DNA from: an uncultured Chloroflexia bacterium
Lineage (GTDB): Bacteria > Chloroflexota > Dehalococcoidia > DSTF01 > JACRBR01
Assembly (NCBI GenBank): GCA_963701135.1
Contig: OY969567.1
Coordinates: 2,113,847-2,177,846, forward strand
Length of the DNA stretch: 64,000 nt
Direction of reading: 5' to 3'
Numbering within the stretch: position 1 is the stretch's first letter; each line of letters begins with the position of its first letter. The position numbers and the translations under genes are program-made. The notes below the pieces were generated by a model. The model was not told the origin of the DNA, ran no database searches, and worked only from the letters and a program-made list of their open reading frames with translations. Shown here one piece after another: positions 198-18,553 of this stretch.

Positions 198-1220
198 GTG
201 AACATGCAGTACGTACAGACGGTCCTGGCTCGGATCGCCGCGAACAGGTTCGATGCGGCTTCTCAACCGGGTGGGTTGCTCGCCGAGCTCGATGCCCACC
301 GGGCATTCGCATCGGCCCAGGCGGGGTTCCGCGGCATGAACATCACCCGCTCCGCCAACCCGGAAGGCGACGCCCTGGTGGTCGTCGAGACGCGTTGGGC
401 CAACAACAACGCGCTCGCCGATTATGCGACCGGCCAGCAGCACGCGGAGAGCATCTTCAACGCTCACAGCGGCGACCTGGTGACTGACAGCCTGCAAGTG
501 CACCGGATGCAGTCGGACGCCGCGCCCCAGCAAGAAGGCCCGGCGCGGGCGTATGACCGGCTGGCGCTGGCGCTCTTCGTGCCGCTCGGGGTGCTCTCGT
601 TCGCGCTGCTCGTGATCTACGCCCTGTCCCGCATCTACCTGACACTTCCGGGCGAGTGGGCGACGCCGCTCGCCGCCGGCATTGCGCTCGGCGTGCTCGG
701 CGTGTCGTGGTACTTCGCGAGCCACCCGTTCGTGCCGCGGTGGCAGATCGCAGGCGTGGCCGTCGTCGTCCTCGGCACGCTGGCGATCGCCGGCACGGCA
801 GCGGCGGTCTACGACGAGCAGAACAAGGAAGTGAAGACAGCCGAATCGCCGACGGCCGCGCCCTCGGCCGGCACGACCCCATCGACGCCGGGCGCCCCGG
901 AGATCGACATGGGCGACAACTTCTTCCAGAACGCGGCGGGCCAGAAGGAGCCGACGATCCCGGTCACAGCGGGCCAGGAAGTCACGATCAACGTGAACAA
1001 CAAGGGTCTGGCGCTCCACAACGTGCACGTGGCGAACGCTTCGGGACAGTTCACGCAGGCGATCTGCAAGGCGGGCGGACCGGAGTTCTGCTCGAATCCG
1101 GCGCAGGTCCCGGCCGGCAGCAGCGCCAAGCTCGTCGTGAAGTTCGACCAGCCGGGCACGTACGACTTCCGCTGCGACTTCCACATCGACCTGATGAAGG
1201 GGAAGATCGAGGTCAAGTAG
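198..1220 (+). CDS. ABM (antibiotic-biosynthesis-monooxygenase-like) domain / 3 TM helices / C-terminal cupredoxin fusion protein
   Basis: Intact 340-aa ORF. The N-terminus is ABM-like (..ALVVVETRWANNNALADY..). Three hydrophobic helices span aa ~120-205. The C-terminus carries a type-1 copper ligand pattern (LALHNVHV ... YDFRCDFHIDLM). A hairpin follows the stop. Confidence 0.65.
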   Translation: MNMQYVQTVLARIAANRFDAASQPGGLLAELDAHRAFASAQAGFRGMNITRSANPEGDALVVVETRWANNNALADYATGQQHAESIFNAHSGDLVTDSLQVHRMQSDAAPQQEGPARAYDRLALALFVPLGVLSFALLVIYALSRIYLTLPGEWATPLAAGIALGVLGVSWYFASHPFVPRWQIAGVAVVVLGTLAIAGTAAAVYDEQNKEVKTAESPTAAPSAGTTPSTPGAPEIDMGDNFFQNAAGQKEPTIPVTAGQEVTINVNNKGLALHNVHVANASGQFTQAICKAGGPEFCSNPAQVPAGSSAKLVVKFDQPGTYDFRCDFHIDLMKGKIEVK

Positions 1221-1269
1221 ACGGGGGAGAAGCGAGAACCTGGAACCAAGAACCTAGAGGACTTGACGA

Positions 1270-1294
1270 GCGGGCCGCCCTTCGGGCGGCCCGC
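1270..1294. terminator. GC-rich hairpin between convergent genes (likely bidirectional intrinsic terminator)
   Basis: gcgggccgcc-cttcg-ggcggcccgc forms a 10-bp perfect stem followed by gtgttt. It lies 50 nt after the stop of ORF 198..1220. Confidence 0.5.
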
Positions 1295-1328
1295 GTGTTT
1301 GGCTCGTGATTATCGGATGCGGCGGCGG

Positions 1329-1479
1329 TTATTTCTTGCGGGTGAGGCCCATCGCCTCGAGCTCCTTCGTTCACCTCGGACCAGCGGGGCTCCCGGCTTG
1401 CGGCCTCTTCCCGGGCGTACCACTTGAAGAAGACCCAGGCGATCAGGCTCCAGATGATGACGCTGCCCATGAGCTTCAT
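1329..1479 (-). CDS. small membrane protein (about 50 aa), frameshifted as assembled
   Basis: The ATG overlaps the ctaG stop (TGATG). The product starts MKLMGSVIIWSLIAWVFFKWY (one TM helix). A 1-nt shift near 1375 restores ..KELEAMGLTRKK-stop before the hairpin. The call is weak because the ORF is short. Confidence 0.3.
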
Positions 1480-2201
1480 CACCCCGCCGCCGACTGCTGG
1501 TCTGCCTCCGGCGACAACCCCCACGTACGCGGCGCCTGCTCGTAGAACGAGTACACGGCGCCGTCCGCGAACGTGATGAACGACGACAGCACCATGGGCA
1601 GCAGCGACTGCATGAACAGGTACGCCATCTGCAGCGGCGCCGCGAGGTGCGGCAGCTCGGGGACCTCGCTCAGCACGGGCCACCACATCAGCATCGCGCT
1701 CGACAGGAGCGCCGCGTGCACCCAGAAGTGGAACCAGTGGTTACGGAGCGCCAGGTCGACGATGGGCGGCAGGTGCGTGAGCAGGAGGAGCGCGTTGAAG
1801 ATCGAGAACGCGACGATGGGGTGCGTGAGGACGCGCGCGACCGCGAGTACGCCTTTGACCCGGAGGAGTGCCTGCCACATCCACACGGGGACACCGGCAA
1901 GCAGCAGCGGTGCGGCGACCAGCACGAAGATCGTGTGCTGGAACATGTGGAAGCTGAGCAGGTACTGCTCGCTCAGGTCGTGTACGGGCGTGCCCGCCAC
2001 CGCATAGACCGCGACGACGCCGGCCGTGAACAGCGCCACCTGGCTCCGGCGCACGCGCCCGGCGTCGGAAAACAGGTCGCGGAGCTGCGTCACGGCGTAC
2101 AGGTAGCCGAGCTCCATCGCGATGCAGAGCAGGACCACGTCCGCGTGCGGGTTCCAGTGGAAGTCATACGGGCCGGAGGCGGCGTGGAGGAGCGGCAGCA
2201 T
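1479..2201 (-). CDS. ctaG: cytochrome c oxidase assembly factor CtaG (caa3-type, membrane)
   Basis: Intact 240-aa polytopic ORF with ..MFQHTIFVLVAAPLLLAGVPVW.. and ..MLMWWPVL.., typical of the Caa3_CtaG family. It lies downstream of the oxidase subunit genes. Confidence 0.7.
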   Translation of the reverse strand: MLPLLHAASGPYDFHWNPHADVVLLCIAMELGYLYAVTQLRDLFSDAGRVRRSQVALFTAGVVAVYAVAGTPVHDLSEQYLLSFHMFQHTIFVLVAAPLLLAGVPVWMWQALLRVKGVLAVARVLTHPIVAFSIFNALLLLTHLPPIVDLALRNHWFHFWVHAALLSSAMLMWWPVLSEVPELPHLAAPLQMAYLFMQSLLPMVLSSFITFADGAVYSFYEQAPRTWGLSPEADQQSAAG

Positions 2202-2919: not shown

Positions 2920-3516
2920 TTACTGCACAAGGTAGACGAGCGTGAAGATGACGATCCAGACGATGTCGACGAAGTGCCAGTACAGGCCGGCCAGCTCGAC
3001 GTTCAGGGCATTCTCGCTCGGTCAGCTTGCCCTCGCAGCGAGCATCACGCAGAGCGACAGCAGGATCAGCACGCCGACGGTGACGTGCGCGCCGTGGAAG
3101 CCCGTCAGCACGAAGAACGTCGTGCCGAACAGGTTCGTGTCGCAGCGCAGGCCTTCGTGGTAGAACTCGGTGAACTCGAACGCCTGGCCGGCCAGGAAGA
3201 CGATGCCCAGCAGCGACGTCGCACAGCAGCCAGATGCGCATGCCGCGCAGGTCGCTGCGCTGGATGGCGGCGAGCGCCAGCACCATCGTCACGCTGCTCA
3301 TCAGCAGGACGAACGAGCTGACCGACGTGAACGGGATGTCGTACAGGTCTGTTCGCGGTACGGGCCCGATCGATGCTGCGGTCGCGGTAGAGCAGGTACG
3401 TGGCGATGAAGGCCGCCGAAGAACAGGCACTCCGACGCCAGGAAGAGCCACATGAGCAGCTTCCGGTTGTCGAGGCCGGTGCTTGTCTCGAGGTGCGCTA
3501 CCGCCGCCTGTTGCAC
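2920..3516 (-). CDS. ctaE: cytochrome c oxidase subunit III, frameshifted as assembled
   Basis: Fragments lie in three frames: [35 protein letters not shown].., ..[30 protein letters not shown].., and a C-terminal ..[21 protein letters not shown] ending at TAA 2920. Confidence 0.75.
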
Positions 3517-3537
3517 GTGCCAGTCCTTCCGCCCTGC

Positions 3538-5473
3538 TTATTCCGTCGCCGGCTCCAGCGCCCAACCGTAGATGCCGACAAGCAGCACGACCGCGCCGAC
3601 CGCACGAGCGCGTAGTCGTAGATCAGACCGAAGCCGATGATCGGCAGGCCCGAGCGCCGCGATCAGCGGCAAGTACGACGGCGACGGCAGGTGGATGCCG
3701 TGGCCGTCGCTCGTGTCCGTCGCCGCGTGCTCGCGTCGCCAGCGACGCGCCGGCCGGCACCGGCACCGGCTTGCCGCTGCGCGTCCTCGGCGTACTTCCT
3801 GTGCCAGAAGTCGTCGAGCGCGTGCACCTGCGGGATCTCGGCGAAGTTGTACGGCGGCGGCGGCGACGGGATCGTCCACTCGAGCGTGCGGCCGTCCCAC
3901 GGGTCGGCGCCCGCGTTCCTCGCCCTTGCGCAGGCTGCAGATGACGTTGACGATGAACACGAGGATCGAGGCCGCGATCGTGAACGCGCCGACGGTCGCC
4001 ATCATGTTCCAGAAGCCCCAGCCGTAGTCCGTCGGGGTAGGTCTGGATGCGCCGCGGCATGCCCAGCAGGCCGAGGATCATCATCGGCTGGAACGTCAGG
4101 TTGAAGCCGATGAACATCGAGCCAGAAGTGCAGCTGGCCGATCGTCTCGTTCAGCATGCTTGCCGGTGAACTTCGGGAACCAGTAGTAGATGCCGGCGAA
4201 CAGGCCGAACATCGCGCCGCCGAACAGCACCTGGTGGAAGTGCGCGACGATGTAGTACGTGTCCTGCTGCTGGTAGTCCGACGGCACGATCGAGTGCGTC
4301 ACGCCGGTCAGCCCGCCGATCGTGAACATCGCGATGAAGCCGACGGCGAAGTATCAGCGGCGTCTTGAAGCTGATCGAGCCGCCCCACAGCGTCGCCAGC
4401 CAGTTGAAGATCTTCACGCCCGTCGGCATCGGCGATCAGGATCGTCGAGACGCCGAACGCCGAGTTCGCGACCGAGCCGAGGCCGGTCGTGTACATGTGG
4501 TGCGCCCACACGCCCCAGCTCATGAACCCGATCGCGATGCCGGAGAAGACGACGAACGGATAGCCGAACAGCGGCTTCCGCGAGAACGTCGGCAGCACCT
4601 CCGACACGATGCCCATCGCGGGCAGGATGAGGATGTACACCTCCGGATGGCCGAAGAGCCAGAACATGTGCTGCCAGAGCAGCGGCGTGCCGCCCGCCGC
4701 CGCGTTGAAGAAGTTCGCGCCGAACAGGCGGTCGAACGTCAGCTGGAACAGCGCCACGGCGATCACCGGCATCGCGAAGATGATGAGGAACGACGTGACC
4801 AGCGTCATCCAGACGAACACCGGCATGCGGAACAGCGTCATGCCCGGCGCGCGCATGTTGAGGATCGTGACGATGAAGTTGAAGCCACCGGCCAGCGACG
4901 AAACGCCGAGGATCTGCAGTGCCGAGCGCCCAGTAGTCGATGCCGTTGCCGGGCGAGAACCGCGTTGAGCGTCAGCGGCGCGTAGCCGAACCAGCCGGCG
5001 TCCGGCGCGCCGAGCTCGCCCTCGAAGATGTTGCCGCCGGTGAAGAAGCTGGCGTTCATGAAGAGGCCGCCGAGCAGGAACACCCAGTAGCTGAAGGCGT
5101 TCAGCCGCGGGAACGCGACGTCGCGCGCGCCGATCATCAGCGGGACCAGCAGGTTGAAGAACGCCGCGCTCAGCGGCATGACGACGAGGAAGACCATCGT
5201 CGTGCCGTGCATCGTGAAGATGCGGTTGTACTGGTCCGGGTTGAGGAGCGTCGCCGTTCGGCGTCGCGAGCTGCAGGCGGATGAGCAGCGCCTCGATGCC
5301 GCCGATGAGGAAGAACGAGGAACGCGCGTGACGCCGTACAGCACGCCGATGCGCTTGTGGTCGACGGTCGCGATCCAGCTCCAGATGCCCTTGTACGTGC
5401 CGGCGCCCTCGCGCATCTGCCGGAGGGCGCCGGCCATGGTCACGCGTTTCGGTGCGTAGGTAGCGCCTGCCAT
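3538..5473 (-). CDS. ctaD: cytochrome c oxidase subunit I, multiply frameshifted as assembled
   Basis: Diagnostic CoxI segments are spread over at least 6 ORF fragments. Examples are [95 protein letters not shown] and the C-terminal ..[10 protein letters not shown]. Confidence 0.9.
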
Positions 5474-6377
5474 CAGTTACTCCCTGTCGAGGCCAGCGCG
5501 GGCTGTCCGGCCGTACCGTCACGCGTGGCGGCCTGCTGCTGCTTCAGCCAGCGTCTGGAAGTCCTGCTCGGACTCGACGATCACGGTGAAGCGCATCTTG
5601 GCGTGGCCGATGCCGCAGAACTCGGCGCACTGCGCGCTGTAGGTGCCGAGCTCCGTCGCCGTTGATCCACATGTGGTTCTCGCGGCCGGGGATGATGTCG
5701 GTCTTGCCGGCGAGCTTGGGCATCCAGAAGCTGTGGATCACGTCGGCAGAGCGGAGCCGGAACAGCACATCGCGGCCGATGGGGATGTGCAGCTCGTTCA
5801 GCGTCTGGGCGGGGGCGCCGCCATCGGCGGCGGGGTAGTTGAACTGCCACGCCCACTGGATGCCGTTCACATCGACCTCAAGGGCGCCCTTCGGTTGTCT
5901 CGCGAGGTCGATGATGCCGCCGATGGTCGGGGGCACGAAGAACGCGAGCAGGATCACGGGCGCGATCGTCCAGAGAATCTCGAGCCTGTTGTTGCCGTGC
6001 ACCTGTTCCGGAAGGCCCGTGTCGCCCTTCTTGCGGCGGAAGCGGAAGAGGATGTACAGCAGTAGCCCCTCGACCAGGATGAGGATGGCCAGGGCGGGCC
6101 ACATGGTCAGGAAGAAGATGTTTTTCTGATCGCGCGCGACATCGCCTGCCGGTGCGAAGGTGTTTTGCGGGCTGTCGAAGAGGCTGCAGCCGGAGAGCAG
6201 GAACGCGACGGCCACGAACGAGGCGAGGGCGGCGAGCCGCGGCAGATGCCTGCTACGCACGGGCGCGAACCTCCTGGTGGAACCGCGAGAAGCGGCTGTG
6301 CATGCGGAAACCAGACGGAGTCGCCGCGTCATCGACGAGGCCTCGCGTGGCAGGGCCGCCTGGACGTGCCATTGCAT
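5474..6377 (-). CDS. ctaC: cytochrome c oxidase subunit II (lipoprotein-type signal), frameshifted near the 3-prime end; start uncertain
   Basis: The product has ..FLLSGCSLF.. (lipobox), two TM helices and ..DVIHSFWMPKLAGKTDIIPGR... The CuA motif CAEFCGIGHAKM is readable only in a shifted frame. The TGA stop abuts the ctaD ATG (TGATG). Confidence 0.8.
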
Positions 6378-6649
6378 ATCTCCTCGCTCGATTCGCTGAC
6401 CGCGGAATTATTCCGCCGAAGGCAGCTTCGGTCAAGGGGTCGCGACGTTAGCCGCAAGGGCCGCACGGCAGGGCCAATGGCCCTTTGTATATTTCGCAAA
6501 TAAAACAGCCAATGACTGGTCAATACCGGCACGCGACGACCTGCGAAGGCCCGGCAATGCAGGCGCGCCCCGCGCGCATGGCGCGCCTAAACAGCGTGCT
6601 GAAAGCGCTCAACGCGACCGGAGTCTCTTGAGTTGGGCTGCCGCACCGC

Positions 6650-6718
6650 GCGGGCTGGAAAGCCCGCGCCACGGGGTGAACTGGCTTTGCGGGCTGAAAA
6701 GCCCGCGCCACGGGGTGA
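6650..6718 (+). repeat. two tandem copies (39-bp period) of a REP-like hairpin element GCGGGCTnnAAAGCCCGCGCCACGGGGTGA
   Basis: Copies lie at 6650-6679 and 6689-6718, each with a 7-bp stem gcgggct/agcccgc. A third copy is at 48274-48300. They sit just 3-prime of ctaB. Confidence 0.6.
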
Positions 6719-6738
6719 GCTGACGTTCCGGCACCCTG

Positions 6739-7651
6739 CTAACGGAGGATCAGTTGGTCGAGGGCGACAGCGAAGAAGATGAACGAAAGGTAGTAGATCG
6801 ACACGCGGAACAGGCCCATGGCGGCAACGGGCGCGTCGTTCGAGCGCAAGCGCCACGCCTCCCGCACGAACATGACGCCGAGGGCGAGCGCGGACGCGGT
6901 GTAGATCCAGCCGACGGCGCCGGTCAGCACGAGTGCCAGCGAGACCGGCACGAGCACCAGCGTGTACGCGAGGATCTGATTCTTCGTCGAGGCCATCGTC
7001 GCGACGACGGGCAGCATCGGCACGTGCGCCCGCGCGTAGTCGTCCTTGTACTTGATCGAGAGCGCCCAGAAGTGCGGCGGCGTCCAGAAGAAGATGATCG
7101 CGAAGAGAATGACCGCCGGCACACCTATGTCGCCCGTGACGGCCGCCCAGCCGACGAGCGGCGGGACCGCGCCCGCCGCACCGCCGATGACGATGTTCTG
7201 CGGCGTCGTGCGCTTCAGCCACAGCGTGTAGACGAACACGTAGAACAGCGTCGCCGCGGCGGCCAGGCAGGCCGCCAGCAGGTTCGACGAGAGCGCCAGC
7301 AGCGCGAACGCGACGGCTTCGAGCGCCACGCGCGAACGACCAGCGCGCTGATCGGCTCAATCTTGCCGAGCGGCAGCGGGCCGCCCCTGCGTCCGGTGCA
7401 TGATCTCGTCGATGTCGCGGTCGAGGTAGCAGTTGATGGCGTTGGCGCCGCCGGCCGCGAGCGATGCCGCCGACGACGGTCGCGAGCATGAGCCAGAGCG
7501 AGGGCACGCCCTTGCTCGCGAGGATCATCGTCGGGATCGTCGTGATCAGCAGCAGCGAGATGATGCGCGGCTTCGTCAGCGAGAGGTAGGCGCTCGCGGT
7601 CTCGCGCCAGGTCAACGCCGGGTGCCGCAGCGTGCTCTCTAACGCGCCCAT
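6739..7651 (-). CDS. ctaB: protohaem IX farnesyltransferase (haem O synthase), frameshifted as assembled
   Basis: The N-terminal fragment reads ..[24 protein letters not shown]... The C-terminal 196-aa ORF has ..[34 protein letters not shown].., characteristic of the UbiA-family CtaB/CyoE. Confidence 0.85.
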
Positions 7652-8595
7652 TGTGCCGCCTCCCCGCCACGCCTGCGGCGCTCTTCCGCCTCTTCCTCCA
7701 CGTCATCACCCGGCAGGTAGTAGGCCAGCGCGCTGATCAGCACCATGGTGCACCAGAGCAGCGCAGCGAGCGACAGGTGCGTGACCACGACGCCCGCCGC
7801 GAGGCCGGTCCAGATGTTGGCGGCGCCGATGAGCGCCTGGGCCACGTACGCGGCGCCGGCGAACAGCGCCAGCGCGAGCAGCAACGGCTGGCGGCGGCGC
7901 TCCTCGAACGCCAGGTAGATCAGCGCCAGCAGCATGATGCCGAGCGCACCGGCGAGCAGCCGGTGCAGGAAGTGCAGCCCCACGGCGCTGCCGCCGGCAG
8001 GGATGACGCTGCCGTTACACAGCGGCCAGCCGCTGCACGCGAGCGATGCGTCGGTGTTGCTGATGTAGGAGCCCAGGACGAGCGTCGCGAACGCCATCGC
8101 CGCCGCCAGCGATGGCCATGCGCGTGAACGCGGTGTCGGTAGACGATGCGAACGCGCGGAAGCCGCGCGAGCGCATCAGCGAGACGGTCGCGGTCACGAT
8201 CAGGACGCCGATGAAGGTCATGGCGGTGCCGAGATGCGTTGCGACGATGCTCGGATGGCAGCTCCTTCTTCACCGTGATGCCGCCGAGGACGATCTGCAC
8301 GGCCAGCAGGACGCCCGCCGTGAACGCGAGCCAGAACACGAGCGGGTTCTTGCCGCTCACCCTTGAACGTGAAGAAGGTGACGCCCAGGAACAGCATGCC
8401 GACGAAGAAGGCGGCCGTGCGGTGCGAGAACTCGATCAGCGTGTGCTTGTCGGACTCCGGGACGAACTTGCCGTGGCACGTCGGCCAGTCCGGGCAGCCC
8501 AGGCCGGAGCCTGTGGCGCGGACGGTGCCGCCAATCATCACCAGCGCGAACGTGGCGACGATCGTGATGAGCAGCAGGCGCTGGAACCAGGTCAT
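7639..8595 (-). CDS. ctaA: haem A synthase (COX15/CtaA family), frameshifted as assembled
   Basis: The N-terminus reads [42 protein letters not shown]. The C-terminal half has ..[23 protein letters not shown]... Four fragments lie in different frames, and the gene overlaps the ctaB start. Confidence 0.8.
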
Positions 8596-8837
8596 ATCGA
8601 GCCACGCGCCGGGAAGGCGCGCGAAATCCACTCCTGACGGCCGGGTGCACGCGGCCTGGGGCGACCGCTGGTGACCTCTATCACGAGTAGCACGGGGCGG
8701 CTCGCAGGGCAAGCGAACGCGGGCGCGGCGGCGCGCACATTGGAGGACTCGTTGACGCCGAATCACGGCGAGCTAAGATGCAGGACTGTCCACCTGTACC
8801 AATCGCGAACCGCACGAGTGAAAGGCAATCGGAAGCT

Positions 8838-9950
8838 ATGAGCGCCACAGGCAAAGCCGCCGTCTTGCTCGGCCCCGGCAAGGGTTACGAGATCCGCGAA
8901 TTCGAAGTACCGGTGCCGGAACCGGACGGCGTCGTCGTCAAGGTGAGCATGGGCGGCATCTGCGGGTCGGACCTGCACATCTGGCGCGGGGACTCACCGC
9001 TGTTCGCGGCGATGGCCGGGAGCGTGGCCGGGCACGAGATGACGGGCCGCGTGCACTCGCTGGGCTCGAACATCAAGACCGACTCGCTCGGCCGGCCGCT
9101 GAAGGAAGGCGACCGCGTGGCGTACGCGTACTTCTACCCGTGCGGACGCTGCTACCAGTGCAACAGGGCCGAGTTCGCCACCTGCCCGAACAAGCTGGCG
9201 CGCATGGGCCCGACGATCAGCCCGTTCAGCGGCGCCTACGGCGAGTACTACTACCTGAAGCCCGGCGGCTGGATCTTCAAAGTGCCCGACGAGATCAGCG
9301 ACGAGGTGGCGACGCCGGTGAACTGCGCGCTGTCGCAGGTCACGTACGGCCTGCAGAAGGCGGGGCTGCGGTATGGCGACACGGTTGTCGTGCAAGGCGC
9401 GGGCGGCCTGGGACTAAACGCGATCGCCGTGGCGAAGGAGATGGGCGCCGACGCCGTGATCGCCATTGACGGCGTGCCGAGCCGGCTGGCGCTGGCGAAG
9501 AAGTTCGGCGCCGATGAGGTCATCGACATCAACGAGAACCCCGGGCCGATGGACCGCATCGCGAAGGTGAAGGGGATGACGGGCGGCCGGGGCGGCGACG
9601 TCGTCGTCGAGGTCGTGGGCGTGCCGGCGGTCGTGCCGGAAGGGCTGCAGATGCTGCGGGAGGGCGGCACCTACCTGGAGATCGGCAACATCTCGTTCGG
9701 CCGCACGACGGAGATCGACCCGTCGCAACTCGTGTGGGGCTCGAAGCGCATCCAGGGCGTGATCATGTACGACCCGTGGGTGATCCCGGAGGCGCTCGAC
9801 TTCCTGGTGCGGACGAAGAACAAGTACCCGCACGGCGACGTCGTGTCGCACAAGTTCAAGCTCGCCGACATCAACGAGGCATTCAGCAGCAGCGAGTGGC
9901 AGCGCGAGGGCGAGGCGACGAAGGTGAACCGCGCCGTCATCACGATGTAG
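8838..9950 (+). CDS. zinc-dependent alcohol dehydrogenase family (MDR) oxidoreductase
   Basis: Intact ORF with ..GICGSDLHIW.., ..GHEMTGRV.., a structural-Zn Cys cluster (CGRCYQCNRAEFATC) and the Rossmann motif VQGAGGLGLNAI. I chose ATG 8838, which has an upstream purine-rich RBS. Confidence 0.85.
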   Translation: MSATGKAAVLLGPGKGYEIREFEVPVPEPDGVVVKVSMGGICGSDLHIWRGDSPLFAAMAGSVAGHEMTGRVHSLGSNIKTDSLGRPLKEGDRVAYAYFYPCGRCYQCNRAEFATCPNKLARMGPTISPFSGAYGEYYYLKPGGWIFKVPDEISDEVATPVNCALSQVTYGLQKAGLRYGDTVVVQGAGGLGLNAIAVAKEMGADAVIAIDGVPSRLALAKKFGADEVIDINENPGPMDRIAKVKGMTGGRGGDVVVEVVGVPAVVPEGLQMLREGGTYLEIGNISFGRTTEIDPSQLVWGSKRIQGVIMYDPWVIPEALDFLVRTKNKYPHGDVVSHKFKLADINEAFSSSEWQREGEATKVNRAVITM

Positions 9951-10823: not shown

Positions 10824-11324
10824 TCAGCCGGCCGAGGCCTCGGCGAGCTCTTTCACTTCCTCGCCCTCCTCTTCGGGCCACGCGCGCTTCTTGAGCATCT
10901 CGCGCGGGGGGTCGATATAGACGGCGCCCCAGCCGCACGCGTCCTCGCACAGACGGCAGCCGGTGCACTTCTTCTCGTTCAGCACGGCGATGCCGAAGAA
11001 GTCGCCGACGGTGCGCTCCGGCTCGCCGAGGCTGAGCGCGTCGAACGGGCAGATCTGGATGCACAGCTCGCAACCGCTGCCGATGCAGTTGTCCTCGACC
11101 ACGATCGCCTTCGGCCACTCCTTGCGGGGGAACGTCTTGCAGACGTCGCCGAGCTCGTCGAGGATGGCCTCGGGCGGACAGACGACGCCGCAGGCGCCGC
11201 ATTCGATGCAGAGGTTGGGGTCGATGACGTGCACGACATTGCGCGAGCCGGTGATCGCGTCCGTCGGGCAGCGCTTCGTACACGCCGTGCAGCCGATGCA
11301 GGTATCGATGATCGTGTAGGACAC
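10824..11324 (-). CDS. 4Fe-4S poly-ferredoxin (four Cys clusters)
   Basis: Motifs present: CIGCTACTKRCP, CIECGACGVVCP, CIGSGCELCIQICP and CTGCRLCEDAC. A GTG start at 11324 lies 7 nt after GGAG. Confidence 0.8.
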   Translation of the reverse strand: MSYTIIDTCIGCTACTKRCPTDAITGSRNVVHVIDPNLCIECGACGVVCPPEAILDELGDVCKTFPRKEWPKAIVVEDNCIGSGCELCIQICPFDALSLGEPERTVGDFFGIAVLNEKKCTGCRLCEDACGWGAVYIDPPREMLKKRAWPEEEGEEVKELAEASAG

Positions 11325-11574
11325 GCGGTACTCCTCGAGGCGCGAGCGCGGGGCCCGCGCGGGATGTTCGATCTCGGCCTCGGAGCGGCAGTTTCGCAAG
11401 TGATTGCTTGTGAAACTCCGCACCTGAGTATAGGGGTGCCGGACTCGCACCGGCAAGCCAACGGCCGGCTGTCGCCGACGACCTGCTGCGCTGACCGGCT
11501 AGACCTGCGCCCTACCGGCCGGGCTTGCGAAACCACACTCTTCGCCTAGCGCCGAGTGACTTCGCGGGTTTACA

Positions 11575-12438
11575 TTGACGCAAGAAATGGAGGATGCAAC
11601 GAAAGCTGCATTAGAGGTACGAGCTCGGGATCGGCGCAGAGTCATGCCCGTCGTCCGGTATCCCGGCGGCAAGCAACGGCTCATAGCCTTCCTCAGTGGC
11701 TTTCTTCCGAAGCCTAGCCAAGTCACAGGGCGGTATATGGAACCGTTCGTGGGCAGCGCGGCCGTATTCCTACACGTTCGTCCACGTAAGGCAACGCTGT
11801 CGGACACAAATCCCGAACTCATCGATCTGTATCTTGGCATCAAGAAGAGCCCGACCGGCGTTTGGCGGGCGTATTCGGGGTTCAAGAACACAAAGCGTGA
11901 GTATCTTCGGGTTCGAAAACTGGATCCGGTCCGACTCGACCTGGTCGATCGCGCAGCACGGCTTCTCTACCTGAACCGCACGTGTTTCAAGGGGAACTGG
12001 CGACACAACCGAAAAGGTGAATTCAACGTCGGGTACGGAGGTCAGTCCCGGCGCTGGGTCCTTAGCGAGGACTATCTCACCGGTGTATCGCGCGCCCTGC
12101 GTAGGGCTGTGATTGAGTGCGGCGACTTCGAGGAGATGATCGACCGGGCCGAGCCTGGGGACTACCTCTTCCTCGATCCCCCTTACCGGCCAGGAGAACG
12201 CGAGCTATTGCACATTCACTATCACGCAAAGCGGTTCGCTTTTGATGACCACCGGAGACTAGCCGCCGCATTGAGACGCGCGGACCGCCGGGAGGTGGAG
12301 TGGTGCCTGACAACTTCGGGGCACGCGGATATTCGACGATTGTTCCGCGGATACCAGATTGAGGAAATACCGAATCGCGGCAAGCAAGGCGCGAGCTCAG
12401 GAGAGGTCTTGGTCTTATCGAAACGGGGACGTAGATGA
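11575..12438 (+). CDS. dam: Dam-family DNA N6-adenine methyltransferase
   Basis: Intact 287-aa ORF with ..VVRYPGGKQRLI.., motif I EPFVGSAAVF and catalytic DPPY (12175-12186). The stop overlaps the next gene's ATG. Confidence 0.9.
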   Translation: MTQEMEDATKAALEVRARDRRRVMPVVRYPGGKQRLIAFLSGFLPKPSQVTGRYMEPFVGSAAVFLHVRPRKATLSDTNPELIDLYLGIKKSPTGVWRAYSGFKNTKREYLRVRKLDPVRLDLVDRAARLLYLNRTCFKGNWRHNRKGEFNVGYGGQSRRWVLSEDYLTGVSRALRRAVIECGDFEEMIDRAEPGDYLFLDPPYRPGERELLHIHYHAKRFAFDDHRRLAAALRRADRREVEWCLTTSGHADIRRLFRGYQIEEIPNRGKQGASSGEVLVLSKRGRR

Positions 12439-14396
12439 TGAAGAACTTCTTCCAAGATGCCGAGATGCAGGATCACCCGCTTCGAGCCCTCCGGGAGTTT
12501 ATGGAGGCAGAGGCTTCGTATGAACTAGCCAAACAATGGGAGAAGATGCGGTTTGTGGGATACGTTCTCGAAATTGGCTACGACACGGCTACGATCATTA
12601 CGTCTGACCCGTACAAGGTCAGCGTGGGGGGCGTTCCACACAACTCGCTGTTGATCATGGTCCCGGCTATCACGGCGGACAACATGACGCCCCATTTTAC
12701 CGTGCTTCGTGTTGCGGCCGCCGCGCCGACGCCGCTTAGCCGCGACGTACAGCAGACGTACTTCGAGCTACAGAAGAAATCCATGCCCGAACTCGATGTG
12801 TTCACTCAAAGTGAGCTTCAGTGGGGCGCTTTGAGCACGAACGTGCTCGGCATGTTCTACCCAAACCCCTCCGTGAACAACCAAGTGGAGTTCTCGGGCA
12901 ACGTCAACAACTTTGTGAGCGCTCACAAGTACAAGGTGTACGCTCCGGACGACAAGCTCCTGGACCTAATCACGAACGCCCTGGTGCCAACCGAGAATCG
13001 CTTCTGTCTCGGAAAGCTCCGCATGACCGAATGCAGGCTCCCGCTGCCCCAGACCGTACCGCCCGATGTGGACGTGACCGTTTCTACTCGCGATTTCATG
13101 GGCGCTCGGACTGCGTTGTTCGGCAAAACGAGGTTGGGGAAGAGCAACGTGGTGAAGTTGATCGCGGAGAGCCTCATCGAGACGACGAAAGAGGGACGGA
13201 ACGTCGGCCAAGTCATCTTTGATATCAACGGCGAATACGCGAACAACAACCCGTGGGACAACAGTTCATCGCTGCGAAGCGCCTATCCCGATCGGTGCAC
13301 CGTGTATGCGTTGACGCCAAAACCGTTGACGCCGTCTAAGCCACTGAAGTTGAACTTCTACGAGCATCCAGAGCGAGCGCATCGTATTCTCGGTGACCTT
13401 CTCGCGGGTGCGGGGCGCACGAGCATTTATATCAAGGCGTTTGCGACCGCCGCGATCCCGTCTATCGCAGAACTGGGCAACTTGGCGGTCGGCGAGAAGC
13501 TGCGAGCCACCAGAAGAATTCTGATGTACTGGGCGATCCTAAAGAAGGCGGGGTATGTCGAACCCGCGAGCTTGTCGTTGCCGATCGACCCGGGATACAA
13601 GGCGGCGCTTAGGCAAGCCATATATGGCGGTGCGACGCCACCGGTCATCACGACGTTAAACGAGCTCCGCGTCGAGTTTGAGAAGATCCAAGACTTTATG
13701 AGGTCGAACGCGAATTCGCCACTACTTCAATCGACAGGCAGCGGCGGCGCACTATTCGACAGCGACGAGAAAGTCCTGCTCGAGTTCCTTAAGCCGACAA
13801 CCGGCGCGGGGCCCACGGTCATTCAACCTTTTAGAAAGTATCACGACGTGAACGCCGGGAACTTTATACATGAGATCATCGAGCTAATCGATGTTGGAAG
13901 AACAGTAATTCTTGATCTAGGTAATGCGAATGAAGAAGTAATGAAGTATTTCTCAGAAGAACTTTCCGCCGAGATCTTCAATCACCAGGTGGAACGATTC
14001 ACGGCCAACGACCTCGGCGACCACTACGTACAGCTCTATTTCGAGGAGGCCCACAATCTCTTCCCGTCTGAAGAGCGTGACACGATTGACATCTACCGCC
14101 GGTTGGCGAAGGAGGGTGCCAAGTACCACATCGGGATGGTCTACGCGACGCAGTCTGTAACGAGCATTAACCGCGACCTCCTCGGACAAACGGAGAACTA
14201 CTTTGTCGCTCACCTGTCCTCGCAGGACCAAGTGAACGCGTTAGGACGTGTTAACGTCGCGTTCGAGAGCGTTAAAGAAGATATTCTGCGGGCGCAGACG
14301 CCCGGCTATGTCAGAGCGCTAACGAAGTCTCATCGCTTTGTCATTTCGATGCAGGCGAATCGTTTCATGCCGACCATAGCTCCGGCAACGCCGTGA
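12435..14396 (+). CDS. HerA/FtsK-clade (DUF87-like) P-loop ATPase
   Basis: Intact 653-aa ORF. It has an N-terminal barrel-like VGYVLEIGYDTATIITSD, Walker A FGKTRLGKSN, Walker B-like VQLYFEEAHNLF, and ..GAKYHIGMVYATQSVTSINRDLL..YFVAHLSS.., typical of HerA-like hexameric ATPases. Confidence 0.8.
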   Translation: MMKNFFQDAEMQDHPLRALREFMEAEASYELAKQWEKMRFVGYVLEIGYDTATIITSDPYKVSVGGVPHNSLLIMVPAITADNMTPHFTVLRVAAAAPTPLSRDVQQTYFELQKKSMPELDVFTQSELQWGALSTNVLGMFYPNPSVNNQVEFSGNVNNFVSAHKYKVYAPDDKLLDLITNALVPTENRFCLGKLRMTECRLPLPQTVPPDVDVTVSTRDFMGARTALFGKTRLGKSNVVKLIAESLIETTKEGRNVGQVIFDINGEYANNNPWDNSSSLRSAYPDRCTVYALTPKPLTPSKPLKLNFYEHPERAHRILGDLLAGAGRTSIYIKAFATAAIPSIAELGNLAVGEKLRATRRILMYWAILKKAGYVEPASLSLPIDPGYKAALRQAIYGGATPPVITTLNELRVEFEKIQDFMRSNANSPLLQSTGSGGALFDSDEKVLLEFLKPTTGAGPTVIQPFRKYHDVNAGNFIHEIIELIDVGRTVILDLGNANEEVMKYFSEELSAEIFNHQVERFTANDLGDHYVQLYFEEAHNLFPSEERDTIDIYRRLAKEGAKYHIGMVYATQSVTSINRDLLGQTENYFVAHLSSQDQVNALGRVNVAFESVKEDILRAQTPGYVRALTKSHRFVISMQANRFMPTIAPATP

Positions 14397-14464
14397 AGTG
14401 AAACAGCAGTGAGGCGTTAAGGAGATGAGACATGCCGTATGAAGCTGGCTCACGGTTGCCGGGA

Positions 14465-14583
14465 TGACCTGCCCCCCGAAAACTGGTCCAGTCTAAATGA
14501 GAGTCCTCCGGGATAATGGCCCTGGCGACAGGGCAAGGAGGACCCATGCGGAAGAGCCGGTTCACGGAGGAACAGATCGTCAC
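14465..14583 (+). mobile_element. 119-bp fragment of the orfA-proximal end (IRR end) of the adjacent IS, in inverted orientation
   Basis: It is the exact reverse complement of 15687-15805. It starts with the IS end TGACCTGCCCCCC and includes the orfA RBS plus 12 codons. Confidence 0.85.
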
Positions 14584-14612
14584 TGACCTGCCCCCGATCT
14601 TTGGTCCACTCA

Positions 14613-15461
14613 TTATGAGAGTCCGACCGGGTCTTTCCGCTCTGTGATGCTGCGCCTGAACTCCTCCGGCGTCCTGTTCTGCAGCGAGCTGTGCGGGCGC
14701 TCGCGATTGTACTCCACCCTCCAGGTTTCGATCTTCTCTCGTGCATCCCAGATCGTCGTGAACCAGTGCTCGTTGAGACACTCGTCACGAAATTTGTCGT
14801 TGAAGCTTTCGGCGAAGCAGTTCTGCACGGGCTTTCCCGGCTCGATGAAGTGCAGCCGCACACCGCGTGCATAGGCCCACTGGTCGAGCGCCTTGCTCGT
14901 CAGCTCAGGCCCGTTGTCCATGATGATCGTCTGCGGCGCCTGGCCGCGCTCATCGATAATCCGATCCAGCACGCGGCCGACGCGCACGCCGGAAAGCGAC
15001 GTGTCCACTTCGATGCCGAGCGCTTCCCTGGTGCAGACATCGAGGACATTCAACGTGCGAATCCGACGGCCCCACCAGAGTTGATCGTGCACAAAGTCCA
15101 GGCACCACACCTCGTCCGGGCGCTGCGGCCGCGGCGCCGGCGTGCGGGCCACGCTTGTCGTCCGTTTGCGCTTCTTCCGCCGTAGGCTGAGTCCTTCTTC
15201 CCGGTAGATCCGCTCCACGCACTTGTGATTCACGCACACCCCCTCCCGCCGCAGCAGCACGTGCAGCCGCCGGTAGCCGTAGCGCCGCTTCTGGGCCGCC
15301 AGCTCGCGTAGCCGCGTGCGGATCGGTCCCTCTGCGCGCCCGTGTCCCTGATAGCGGGCCGTCGAACGATGCATGGTGAGCAGCCCGCAGGCACGGCGCT
15401 GAGACAGCCCCCGTTCCCCTTCAAGGAAAAGAACGGCGACCCTCCGCACCGCGGGCTTCAC
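14613..15461 (-). CDS. IS3-family transposase OrfB (DDE/rve integrase core)
   Basis: 282-aa ORF with ..WCLDFVHDQLWWGRRIRTLNVLDVCTRE.. and ..IIMDNGPELTSKALDQWAYARGVRLHFIEPGKPVQNCFAESFNDKFRDECLN.., a typical rve domain. Confidence 0.9.
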   Translation of the reverse strand: MKPAVRRVAVLFLEGERGLSQRRACGLLTMHRSTARYQGHGRAEGPIRTRLRELAAQKRRYGYRRLHVLLRREGVCVNHKCVERIYREEGLSLRRKKRKRTTSVARTPAPRPQRPDEVWCLDFVHDQLWWGRRIRTLNVLDVCTREALGIEVDTSLSGVRVGRVLDRIIDERGQAPQTIIMDNGPELTSKALDQWAYARGVRLHFIEPGKPVQNCFAESFNDKFRDECLNEHWFTTIWDAREKIETWRVEYNRERPHSSLQNRTPEEFRRSITERKDPVGLS

Positions 15462-15724
15462 CAGTTTCGCGAGGCCACCTCTTTGAGGGCGTCGATGTCC
15501 AGCGCCTGATTGGCGACGAGCTTCTTCAGCCGCCGATTCTCATCCTCCAGGGTCTTCAGGCGCTGCGCGTCGGGCACGCTCATGCCGCCGTACTTCGCCT
15601 TCCAGCGGTACAGCGTCTGCGCGCCGATGCCGAGGCGCCGGCAGAGCTCCTGCGTCGGCGTCCCTGCCTCGTGCTCTTTGATCGCCGTGACGATCTGTTC
15701 CTCCGTGAACCGGCTCTTCCGCAT
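15458..15724 (-). CDS. IS3-family transposase OrfA (HTH)
   Basis: MRKSRFTEEQIVTAIKEHEAGTPTQELCRRLGIGAQTLYRWKAKYGG..LKKLVANQALDIDALKE. AAGGAGG lies upstream of ATG 15724. Confidence 0.85.
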   Translation of the reverse strand: MRKSRFTEEQIVTAIKEHEAGTPTQELCRRLGIGAQTLYRWKAKYGGMSVPDAQRLKTLEDENRRLKKLVANQALDIDALKEVASRNW

Positions 15725-15834
15725 GGGTCCTCCTTGCCCTGTCGCCAGGGCCATTATCCCGGAGGACTCTCATTTAGACTGGACCAGTTTTCGGGGGGCA
15801 GGTCAGGGAGAACACGCCAGTCGATTGGGCCACC

Positions 15835-17080
15835 TTGACGTTCCTGAAAAGTCCCCTAGTGAGAAAACTGTGCGAGAGCTTCGAAGACACCGCCGCGCAT
15901 GGCAGGATTCCACCGGCGTCCTGGGAGTTGCCGCCGATGGGTACGCCGCTCCCTCTGGTATTCGCGGTAGACGGGTCGCTGCAGATCATAGAAAACGAGC
16001 TACCACCGCATAAGACGTTGGCGTTCGTGAAGACAGCGCTGTTGCGAGTGGACCGAGTGGCCCTCGCGGCAATCGATCCCCTGATGCCTCACCCGCTGGC
16101 AATGCGTGAGCTGCTGGCCGATTCGGCGATGTACCACGCCACGGCGTTCCCGATGCGGCACGTAGCAGTAGCAGGAATGACGGTTTATGACGCCGTTCGT
16201 CAGGTGATATTCGAGTCCGTGAAGGACCCGACTCTTCAGGGCGAGGTCATGGAAACTCTCAAGTGGCTGGCCTACGAGAAATGGGACGGGCAATCGAAGA
16301 GTTTGCCTCCGTTCCAGTGCCCGCACTGCGATGACAGTACGTCCATGTCATTCGATAACGAATTAGGTCCTTGCGATAGCTGTGGTAAGGATGTCTTTCT
16401 GACTGACATGCTTGGCTTCCATCTCGAGATGGCTGACGACGCCGCGCCGAACAGCATCGCTGGTTCGTACATGCTTGTGCACGAAACTCTAATGCTGTTC
16501 ACCGGCGTGCGGTACTTCTGGGAACAGAACAGATCTCTGCTTTCGGATTGTCTGTTCTTGAAGGACGGTCCGCTGGCTATTCGAGCTCAGTATTCCAAGC
16601 TCGTCGCGCCAATTCGTCGCTTCTTCGAAGCCGCCAGGTTCCGCAGGCGTCGAGGTGTGCATGGTGGGGCAAGAGAAAACCGGAGCCTTCGTGGAGCACT
16701 TGAACCTTATCGGACCTCACGGGCCTGATCACGGTATCTTTCTTCCGGGCCACGACTATATCCGCTCGGAAGTGCAACATCGACCAATCGCCGGCGACCC
16801 ATACGGTCTATACACCAACTATGGTGCGAAGGTATTCACGCGGTTCTCCGAAAGACATCAAGCTGTCCTGACGATCCCGACGGGCAAACACCTTCGCGAC
16901 CCCGCTTCGAGCGATCTCATCGGCGCGGCTCGGATCTTCGCGACGCTACCGGCTCTATTGAGTAGCCGGTTCGAAGGAGGACTGTTCCCGATTGAGCTGG
17001 CCAACAACGTAGCGTCTCTGTCTACCTACCCGTCGGCGAAGGTTCTAGCCCTTTTTGCTCAGGCCGCTGCTACGCATTGA
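15835..17080 (+). CDS. NurA-like nuclease with Zn-ribbon insert; 5-prime end displaced by the IS and +1 frameshift near 16639
   Basis: ORFs 15835..16728 and 16655..17080 join if one T at about 16639 is removed (..RRFFEAAR/SAGVEVCMVGQEKTG..). NurA-like motifs are VFAVDGS, YMLVHETL, LFLKDGPL, GQEKTG and FPIELANNVASLS. The Zn-ribbon reads CPHC..CDSC. Confidence 0.6.
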
Positions 17081-17245
17081 AGTCTGGCCCGCAAGGGGGT
17101 GCAGTTTCAGGAGTCTCGATCTACTAACCCGGCAAGCCGACGGCCGCCGAGATCGAGCGGCCGCACCGGCCAGTTCCCCTATTCGGCGGCGGTGCACTCC
17201 CTCGGACCGCAGATTCGGCCGATACAAGAGCGGGAGGACGCTGCC

Positions 17246-18547
<1,302 letters not shown>

Positions 18548-18553
18548 GCGGGA

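Follow-up and report, generated by a model that had tools for sequence, protein, structure and literature searches.

A low-GC gene cassette in a Chloroflexota genome with a Dam-like methyltransferase, a TdpA-like ATPase, and a disrupted NurA-fold nuclease is a probable methylation-based counterpart of TdpABC

A 64,000-nucleotide stretch of the genome of an uncultured Chloroflexia bacterium (GenBank assembly GCA_963701135.1, contig OY969567.1, positions 2,113,847 to 2,177,846 of the forward strand; here called the window, to which all coordinates refer unless another record is named) contains a low-GC island with three co-oriented genes, coding for a DNA methyltransferase, a HerA-clade ATPase, and a nuclease whose gene is interrupted by an insertion sequence (IS). 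On balance, we think it probable that the island is a horizontally acquired cassette for an ATP-driven, restriction-modification (R-M)-like system, a base methylation counterpart of the phosphorothioate-based TdpABC system, and that it is defunct in this genome. A restriction-like role had been put forward in an earlier prediction made from the nucleotide sequence (the original prediction), and it is the best-supported reading because of the HerA and NurA assignments, the conservation of the triad, and its absence from phage modules. We note, however, that the window copy is dead and that the function reported for a similarly composed operon of Thermus thermophilus ICEth1 would be a live rival.

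The first gene is predicted to code for an N6-adenine methyltransferase of the D12 class, with strong matches to Pfam MethyltransfD12 (PF02086; 6e-38), PADLOC MTase_II (3e-58), and TIGR00571 "dam" (179 bits, above the cutoff of 114.85). The motifs YPGGKQRL (11659-11682), FVGSAAVF (11746-11769), and DPPY (12175-12186) are all present, and the nearest solved enzymes in the PDB are DpnM (2dpm; 8.5e-36) and then Escherichia coli Dam (4e-19). The maximal open reading frame (ORF) extends from a TTG at 11575 to 12438, and the true start is likely the ATG at 11644, giving a product of 264 aa and matching the call in L001, an intact relative from a Chloroflexota metagenome-assembled genome that carries the cassette at 5189-9302 and served as the reference for nucleotide alignment (blastn/MAFFT). 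The ratio of nonsynonymous to synonymous substitution (dN/dS) relative to L001 is 0.11.

The start codon of the ATPase gene overlaps the methylase stop codon (ATGA), and the product has Walker A (13122-13148) and Walker B (LYFEEAHN; 14034-14057) motifs and matches Pfam DUF87/HerA (PF01935; 2e-12) and PADLOC HerA (3.5e-18). It falls far below every NCBIfam HerA equivalog cutoff, scoring 34 bits against a cutoff of 970 for NF040819 and 44 bits against 800 for NF042943 (HerA_antiphage). Its best phmmer match among PDB sequences is TdpA (8wet_A; 7e-24), the remaining HerA proteins being no better than 8e-9. The AlphaFold2 model (predicted local distance difference test score [pLDDT], 78.5) behaves similarly in Foldseek searches, with TdpA chains as the top six matches (3e-30 to 8e-28; TM up to 0.63/0.72; 20 to 22% identity), followed by Sir2-HerA, DUF4297-HerA, and archaeal HerA at ∼1e-21. 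By sequence and predicted fold, the ATPase is thus of the TdpA type within the HerA clade, with TdpA as its closest solved relative. Relative to L001, the gene has an in-frame 24-nucleotide deletion at 14386, near the C terminus, and a dN/dS of 0.05. The original prediction holds up well for these two genes: its three co-oriented genes and quoted motifs lie where it placed them, as does the stop-start overlap, and its Dam-family and HerA-like assignments are corroborated, the latter by both profile and fold matches. The search with PADLOC that it proposed recovers the ATPase and the methyltransferase and nothing for the nuclease, for which PADLOC 2.0.0 has no model.

The nuclease, when three lesions in its gene are mended, is a 433-aa protein that is 95% identical, without gaps, to protein P0001. 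P0001 was modeled with AlphaFold2 from a 72-sequence alignment (pLDDT 85.7; predicted TM score, 0.84), and the model has 11 significant Foldseek matches in the PDB, all of them with the NurA fold; TdpB is first (8wfd_G; 8.4e-9, probability 1.0, TM 0.50/0.59), followed by NurA proteins of Thermococcus, Deinococcus, Pyrococcus, Thermotoga (TM1739), and Sulfolobus. A Foldseek search of viral structures returned nothing at an E value of ≤0.001. Scanning 1.84 billion representative proteins yields a family of 756 clusters (50% identity) at an E value of ≤0.001, most genes of which are labeled "hypothetical protein" and are without any Pfam domain, and distant relatives are named "DNA double-strand break repair nuclease NurA" by the NCBI annotation pipeline PGAP. 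Neither the repaired nuclease nor P0001 matches Pfam NurA (PF09376) at an E value of ≤10, but 7 of 49 divergent full-length members, drawn from the family matches listed and each matching the family profile at ≤1e-33, do so (best, 8.5e-26). The repaired nuclease has no SIR2 or DUF4297 match in Pfam, NCBIfam, or PADLOC. A NurA-like identity, as originally predicted, is therefore not evident from any direct profile match, but is supported by the modeled fold and by the transitive Pfam matches.

The putative active site is well conserved. Residues D65, E236, D263, and E299 are present in at least 90% of the divergent members, are all kept in the window copy, and in the model follow the strand-helix order expected for an RNase H-like active site; the window copy also retains the catalytic-type motifs VDGS, HET, KDGPL, and GQEKTG. 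A CxxC...CxxC zinc ribbon, located by the original prediction at 16318-16392, forms an insertion that follows the third strand and precedes the catalytic helix, and of its cysteines (181, 184, 199, and 202) three are invariant and C184 is present in at least 90% of members. The N-terminal residues 1 to 36 are strongly conserved but modeled with low pLDDT. We speculate that the zinc ribbon is a candidate DNA reader and the N-terminal 36 residues a candidate docking segment for the ATPase.

TdpABC is a described defense system based on phosphorothioate modification, and is listed under phosphorothioate-based R-M in the table of a 2025 review (PMC12914056, PMC13223576); TdpC alone modifies the DNA, and the reported Tdp motif is GpsATC (PMC12914056). 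Besides this single modification enzyme, TdpABC comprises TdpA, which is a HerA-like ATPase, and TdpB, which is NurA-like, and solved structures of these two are available (PDB 8wet, 8wfd, and 8y1k). The cassette shares this three-gene composition, and its methylase resembles GATC enzymes, in keeping with the Tdp motif. It differs in that the modification gene codes for a D12 methyltransferase rather than TdpC, as it does in 62 of 66 loci described below, such that the mark would be a methyl group on a base and not a sulfur in the backbone. Moreover, the nuclease exceeds TdpB in length by ∼75 aa and has the zinc ribbon and conserved N-terminal peptide described above, the ATPase shares only the low identity with TdpA noted above, and the family is not confined to thermophiles. 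In the TdpABC system of extreme thermophiles, described by An et al. in Nat Chem Biol in 2025, the modification reportedly stops or excludes TdpAB on self DNA. By analogy, the cassette methyltransferase would place N6-methyladenine in host DNA, with GATC as the probable site, while an ATPase hexamer and a nuclease dimer, like TdpA6-TdpB2 and HerA6-NurA2, would thread and degrade double-stranded DNA; this machine would be halted on self DNA by the modification, or kept off it, so that unmarked incoming DNA alone would be destroyed.

Disruption of the nuclease gene has left the window copy dead (Table 1). A ribosome-binding site (AAGGAG; 14419-14424) lies seven bases ahead of an ATG at 14432, which is the true start since the family N-terminal consensus (MPYxAGxRLPxERASRLGHLDV, from the 72-homologue alignment) is encoded there, and the reading frame is interrupted by an IS3-family element after codon 11. 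Alignment to L001 maps three lesions: a block at 14465-15809 comprising the IS and one copy of its target duplication, a +1 insertion at 15841, and an extra T at 16639. The original prediction had given the gene as 15835-17080, which is right as to its position but misses the start upstream of the IS; its proposed removal of 14465-15809 and of the T near 16639 proved exact, and the insertion at 15841 escaped it. The nuclease dN/dS relative to L001 is 0.057, indicating that the gene was under purifying selection until very recently. With the restriction arm dead, the methylase is effectively an orphan in this genome. Synonymous divergence from L001 is lower in the nuclease gene (0.45) than in the genes for the methylase and the ATPase (0.80), a hint that parts of the cassette have recombined or that codon constraints differ.

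The inserted element has the hallmarks of the IS3 family, including a helix-turn-helix (HTH) orfA (HTH_Tnp_1, 5e-25), a DDE-type orfB (rve, 8e-22; rve_3, 3e-29), an HTH_21 match, terminal inverted repeats, and a short target duplication, and it is present as a single copy in the window. The 4-bp target duplication (GGGA; 14461-14464 and 15806-15809) shows that the insertion is not an assembly error. We note that the left end of the element (14465-14583) is a perfect inverted copy (119/119) of its own right end (15687-15805) that includes the first orfA codons and adjoins, with nothing in between, the native left inverted repeat (14584-14624), which is only 76% matching. The GGGA duplication brackets this whole composite, and the element must therefore have moved in one piece, carrying two identical right ends.

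Table 1. Coordinates of the cassette, the inserted element, and the island edges in the window
Feature	Position	Strand	Basis or remarks
4Fe-4S ferredoxin gene, left flank	10824-11456	-	
Island left edge and cassette upstream leader	11545-11643	+	Homology to L001 starts here
Dam/DpnM-like D12-class N6-adenine DNA methyltransferase (predicted), intact	11644-12438	+	PF02086, TIGR00571
TdpA-like HerA/FtsK-clade ATPase (predicted), 653 aa, intact	12435-14396	+	PF01935, PADLOC HerA, fold
Nuclease gene, first 11 codons (MPYEAGSRLPG)	14432-14464	+	Family N terminus; separated from the remainder by the IS
IS3-family insertion sequence	14465-15805	-	orfA 15458-15754, orfB 14613-15461; rve/HTH domains
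Nuclease gene remainder, NurA-fold, TdpB-like (predicted)	15810-17080	+	Alignment to L001; +1 insertions at 15841 and 16639
Island right edge	17081-17084	+	Homology to L001 ends directly after the nuclease stop codon

The boundaries of the cassette are sharply defined. The island (11545-17084) has a GC content of ∼57%, compared to ∼69% in its housekeeping surroundings (50 to 61% and 66 to 75%, respectively, in 400-nucleotide windows), in agreement with the low-GC island that had been recognized by hand counting. Over exactly this region the window and L001 share 85.6% nucleotide identity, and there is no similarity between them outside it by blastn/MAFFT. The homology begins ∼100 bp upstream of the methylase gene and ends directly past the nuclease stop codon, and because it stops so sharply at the gene edges, the mobile unit consists of the three genes alone.

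The cassette is widespread in bacteria and archaea. When one genome per species was scanned, 80 loci were recovered, and gene states were counted for the 66 loci having at least 2.9 kb upstream. Bacterial carriers include Chloroflexota, Methylomirabilota, Nitrospirota, Acidobacteriota, Planctomycetota, Verrucomicrobiota, Cyanobacteria, Spirochaetota, Saccharimonadales, Bacteroidota, Desulfobacterota, Campylobacterota, Firmicutes, and Deinococcota, with the candidate phyla radiation represented, and archaeal carriers include Methanoperedens, Methanosarcinales, Methanobacteriota, Nitrososphaeraceae, and Heimdallarchaeota; across these phyla and domains the homologues are 45 to 75% identical to P0001. 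Cultured carriers of an intact cassette include Meiothermus hypogaeus DSM 23238 (NZ_QWKY01000005.1, ∼20.9-25.1 kb) and Geosporobacter ferrireducens IRF9 (NZ_CP017269.1, ∼244-248 kb), and Methanolapillus millepedarum Ac7 is a further cultured carrier. The three genes are intact and adjacent in the order methylase-ATPase-nuclease at 55 of the 66 loci, in line with the expectation in the original prediction that the triad would recur elsewhere as a neighborhood. The methylase is present, intact or broken, directly upstream at 62 loci and the ATPase, intact or broken, at 63, and three intact homologue loci that were looked up have the same gene order in unrelated contexts. Where the cassette has decayed, an intact methylase may accompany a broken ATPase (L005 and L070) or a broken nuclease (L085 and the window copy), several genes may be broken together (L026, L033, and L067), or a solitary nuclease remnant is left (L045, L053, and L066). 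A pattern in which the methylase is kept while the ATPase or nuclease is broken fits a toxic restriction arm. The only locus with an intact ATPase and nuclease but no D12 methylase is L062, from a Nitrososphaeraceae archaeon, in which the pair (3015-6366 of that locus) is divergent from a gene for a DpnII/MboI-like GATC endonuclease (879-1661, minus strand), with an unassigned 353-aa protein also adjoining; it is plausible that GATC methylation is provided by other means in that host.

These counts bear on whether the three genes belong together at all. HerA proteins act with stand-alone effectors in Sir2-HerA and DUF4297-HerA systems, and a remote relative on a Tolypothrix plasmid (∼24% identity) has HTH, DUF87, and NurA genes, in that order, without a methylase, so the methylase could be an orphan Dam lying beside an independent HerA-effector defense pair. 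We regard this as highly improbable, given that the methylase is directly upstream at nearly all of the loci, that its stop codon overlaps the ATPase start in both the window and L001, that its divergence keeps pace with that of the ATPase and nuclease genes, and that different methylase families have been recruited in remote relatives.

Those relatives, at ∼24% identity, pair the ATPase-nuclease module with other methylases. Deferribacter desulfuricans pDF308 (L087; 2126-5924) codes, in this order, for an N6_N4 methylase, a DUF87 ATPase whose gene is interrupted by an IS200/IS605 element, and a nuclease named NurA by PGAP, and a prophage of Vibrio cyclitrophicus, phage 10N.286.54.E5_PE002 (L088; 1-5751), has, in order, an integrase, a split HerA, a nuclease homologue, and a D12 methylase on the opposite strand. 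The association of different methylase families with the same motor-nuclease pair is as expected of R-M logic. The pDF308 module is a second, independent instance of transposon inactivation of the restriction arm (by a TnpA/TnpB insertion) in which the methylase is left intact. The Vibrio module adjoins the integrase at the accessory end of the prophage, and only its methylase is annotated as defense related (Type II MTase).

A housekeeping function in resection of double-strand break ends is suggested by the HerA and NurA folds, by the expected hexamer-plus-dimer assembly shared with the archaeal and Deinococcus HerA-NurA complex, and by the PGAP repair-nuclease names on distant relatives, and the Dam methylase would then be a traveling companion with a role in repair or regulation. 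However, the ATPase scores far too low for a HerA equivalog (34 versus 970 bits), no mre11 or rad50 genes are near the cassette in the loci looked up, and no Mre11 or Rad50 families are among the neighboring ORFs scanned. The cassette is also methylase linked, and the low-GC island, the patchy distribution with 45 to 75% identity to P0001, and the frequent disruption point to a dispensable mobile cassette; in the window the gene has been inactivated without loss of the neighboring genes. An end resection role is thus improbable.

Cassette neighbors were scanned as the two nearest ORFs on each side of 33 loci (131 ORFs). The commonest families are Eco57I/type IIG R-M (the top family, with 4 of the 131), PD-(D/E)XK, DEAD/ResIII helicases, and N6 methylases, and there are no packaging, replication, or conjugation modules among the 131. 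No relatives were recovered from IMG/VR viral contigs by pattern matching, and 50,697 phage records gave only two remote matches, both in Vibrio prophage accessory regions. A role in phage replication or packaging is rejected on account of this near-absence, and the prospect raised with the original prediction, that the triad might always be part of such phage modules, is not realized among the neighbor ORFs, phage records, or IMG/VR contigs.

The ICEth1 operon of T. thermophilus has similar components, coding for a type IIG enzyme (TTC1877; Tth111II), a NurA-like protein (TTC1878), the hexameric HerA-family ATPase TdtA (TTC1879), and an N4/N6 methylase (TTC1880); the donation of DNA by transjugation depends on both TdtA and the NurA-like protein (PMC5365140, PMC7767461), whereas the methylase has only minor effects on transfer. 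By these descriptions, the ATPase, nuclease, and methylase genes of ICEth1 are co-transcribed and lie on a low-GC mobile region, and in this composition and setting the operon resembles the cassette. The cassette could accordingly be a machine for DNA donation, with the ATPase exporting and the nuclease processing host DNA for uptake by neighboring cells, and the methylase as an accessory, and it is in accord with this that type IIG R-M genes are the commonest neighbors of the cassette. We consider this unlikely, though less so than the alternatives above. The ICEth1 operon is within an integrative conjugative element (ICE) and includes the type IIG enzyme, whereas the window and most other loci are without an ICE context (integrase or conjugation genes, or a tRNA gene in the window); the ICEth1 methylase is of the PF01555 family and last in its operon, whereas that of the cassette is of the D12 class and first; the methylase is the most faithfully retained of the cassette genes; and the closest solved relatives are the defense proteins TdpAB.

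Other described systems resemble the cassette less closely. CglI and NgoAVII are ATP-dependent, three-component R-M systems with a methylase, a nuclease, and a helicase-like ATPase (PMC5737866). The cassette follows the same logic of a methylase with a separate nuclease and a separate nucleoside triphosphate-driven motor. In CglI and NgoAVII the motor is a superfamily 2 DEAD-family helicase and the nuclease is of the phospholipase D family, whereas the predicted counterparts in the cassette are a ring ATPase of the HerA type and a nuclease with the RNase H-like NurA fold. Sir2-HerA and DUF4297-HerA systems similarly combine a HerA-clade ATPase with an effector, and PADLOC HerA models match the cassette ATPase, but the cassette effector has a NurA fold, a methylase is present, and the score is below the HerA_antiphage cutoff. 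Among PADLOC systems, Hma was considered and gave no matches, and MADS and PD-Lambda-5 were rejected because the weak mad8 and PD-Lambda-5_B matches score below those to the generic HerA and MTase_II models. There is no recognizable stand-alone endonuclease beside the methylase, as there would be in an orthodox Type II R-M system, and Pfam, NCBIfam, and PADLOC profile searches found no restriction endonuclease family in the cassette or its flanks, as the original prediction had also observed. Its view that the architecture is undescribed stands insofar as we found no published methylase-HerA-NurA defense system, although mention in An et al. or in Iyer et al. (2004) is possible; NurA likewise goes unmentioned in two comparative-genomic surveys of HerA/FtsK "capture" systems. 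The architecture as such nonetheless has precedents in TdpABC (2025) and the ICEth1 operon. What would be new, by analogy, is TdpABC-like restriction in which base methylation replaces phosphorothioation.

The surroundings of the island offer few further clues. No sigma-70 consensus promoter was found in the leader, and a promoter and terminator scan did not exceed shuffled background. The window is devoid of tRNA genes, and the flank genes that were scanned have no integrase domain. An 18-nucleotide direct repeat, CCGGCAAGCC(A/G)ACGGCCG, is present at 11450-11467 and 17129-17146 with 17 of 18 positions matching, its copies lying 78 bp ahead of the L001-shared region and 45 bp beyond it and thus bracketing the island; it may be an insertion site remnant or may be due to chance. 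On the right flank, the glutamate dehydrogenase gene (gdh; ∼17246-18550) changes frame at least five times, with pieces of its Pfam domains in three frames, and tracking of the phase of third-codon-position GC identifies further frameshift-rich patches at ∼2.7-4.4 kb, 19.5-22.7 kb, and 29-36.4 kb, with 41.7-60 kb being clean. These frameshifts reflect either real gene decay or local indel errors in the assembly, and conclusions drawn from single-base frameshifts in the window are weakened as a consequence.

Several observations weigh against an R-M-like role for the cassette, or against parts of the argument for it. The two single-base insertions in the nuclease gene may be assembly errors, because the adjacent gdh changes frame so often. 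The repaired nuclease has no relevant Pfam match even at an E value of ≤10, where there is only weak zinc-ribbon noise, and no NCBIfam or PADLOC match; the family profile finds nothing relevant among PDB sequences, TdpB included, and the fold similarity to TdpB is moderate. The Tolypothrix plasmid pair has no methylase, the 131 neighboring ORFs are mostly housekeeping genes, and the ICEth1 operon, with the same parts, is needed for transjugation and not for defense (PMC5365140). GATC is probably the methylated site, as judged only from the resemblance of the methylase to DpnM and Dam. Among palindromic 4-mers in the flanks of 39 carrier loci, only CTAG is more depleted than GATC (observed/expected for GATC, 0.81); this depletion speaks for the R-M-like reading but, measured in carriers alone, is only suggestive, and in the window alone the ratio is an unremarkable 0.89.

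If the R-M-like reading is correct, then a common three-gene restriction cassette goes unrecognized both by PADLOC 2.0.0, which has no nuclease model, and by the defense notes of the Vibrio prophage record, and the TdpABC principle would extend from backbone sulfur to ordinary base methylation. A broader proposal, which we rate as slightly less likely than not to hold, is that the 756 clusters represent a large unannotated class of ATP-dependent R-M systems in bacteria and archaea, in which a HerA-type translocase and a NurA-type nuclease spare base-methylated DNA (probably N6-methyladenine at GATC), with the module itself being modification agnostic and pairing with phosphorothioation or with D12 or N6_N4 methylases. 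The nuclease family merits its own profile model for annotation, and the ICEth1 tdtA operon, with the same parts but read as a DNA export machine, merits a second look. The system would also pose the concrete question of how an N6-methyl group in the major groove is sensed by a ring ATPase that threads DNA or by a NurA-type nuclease.

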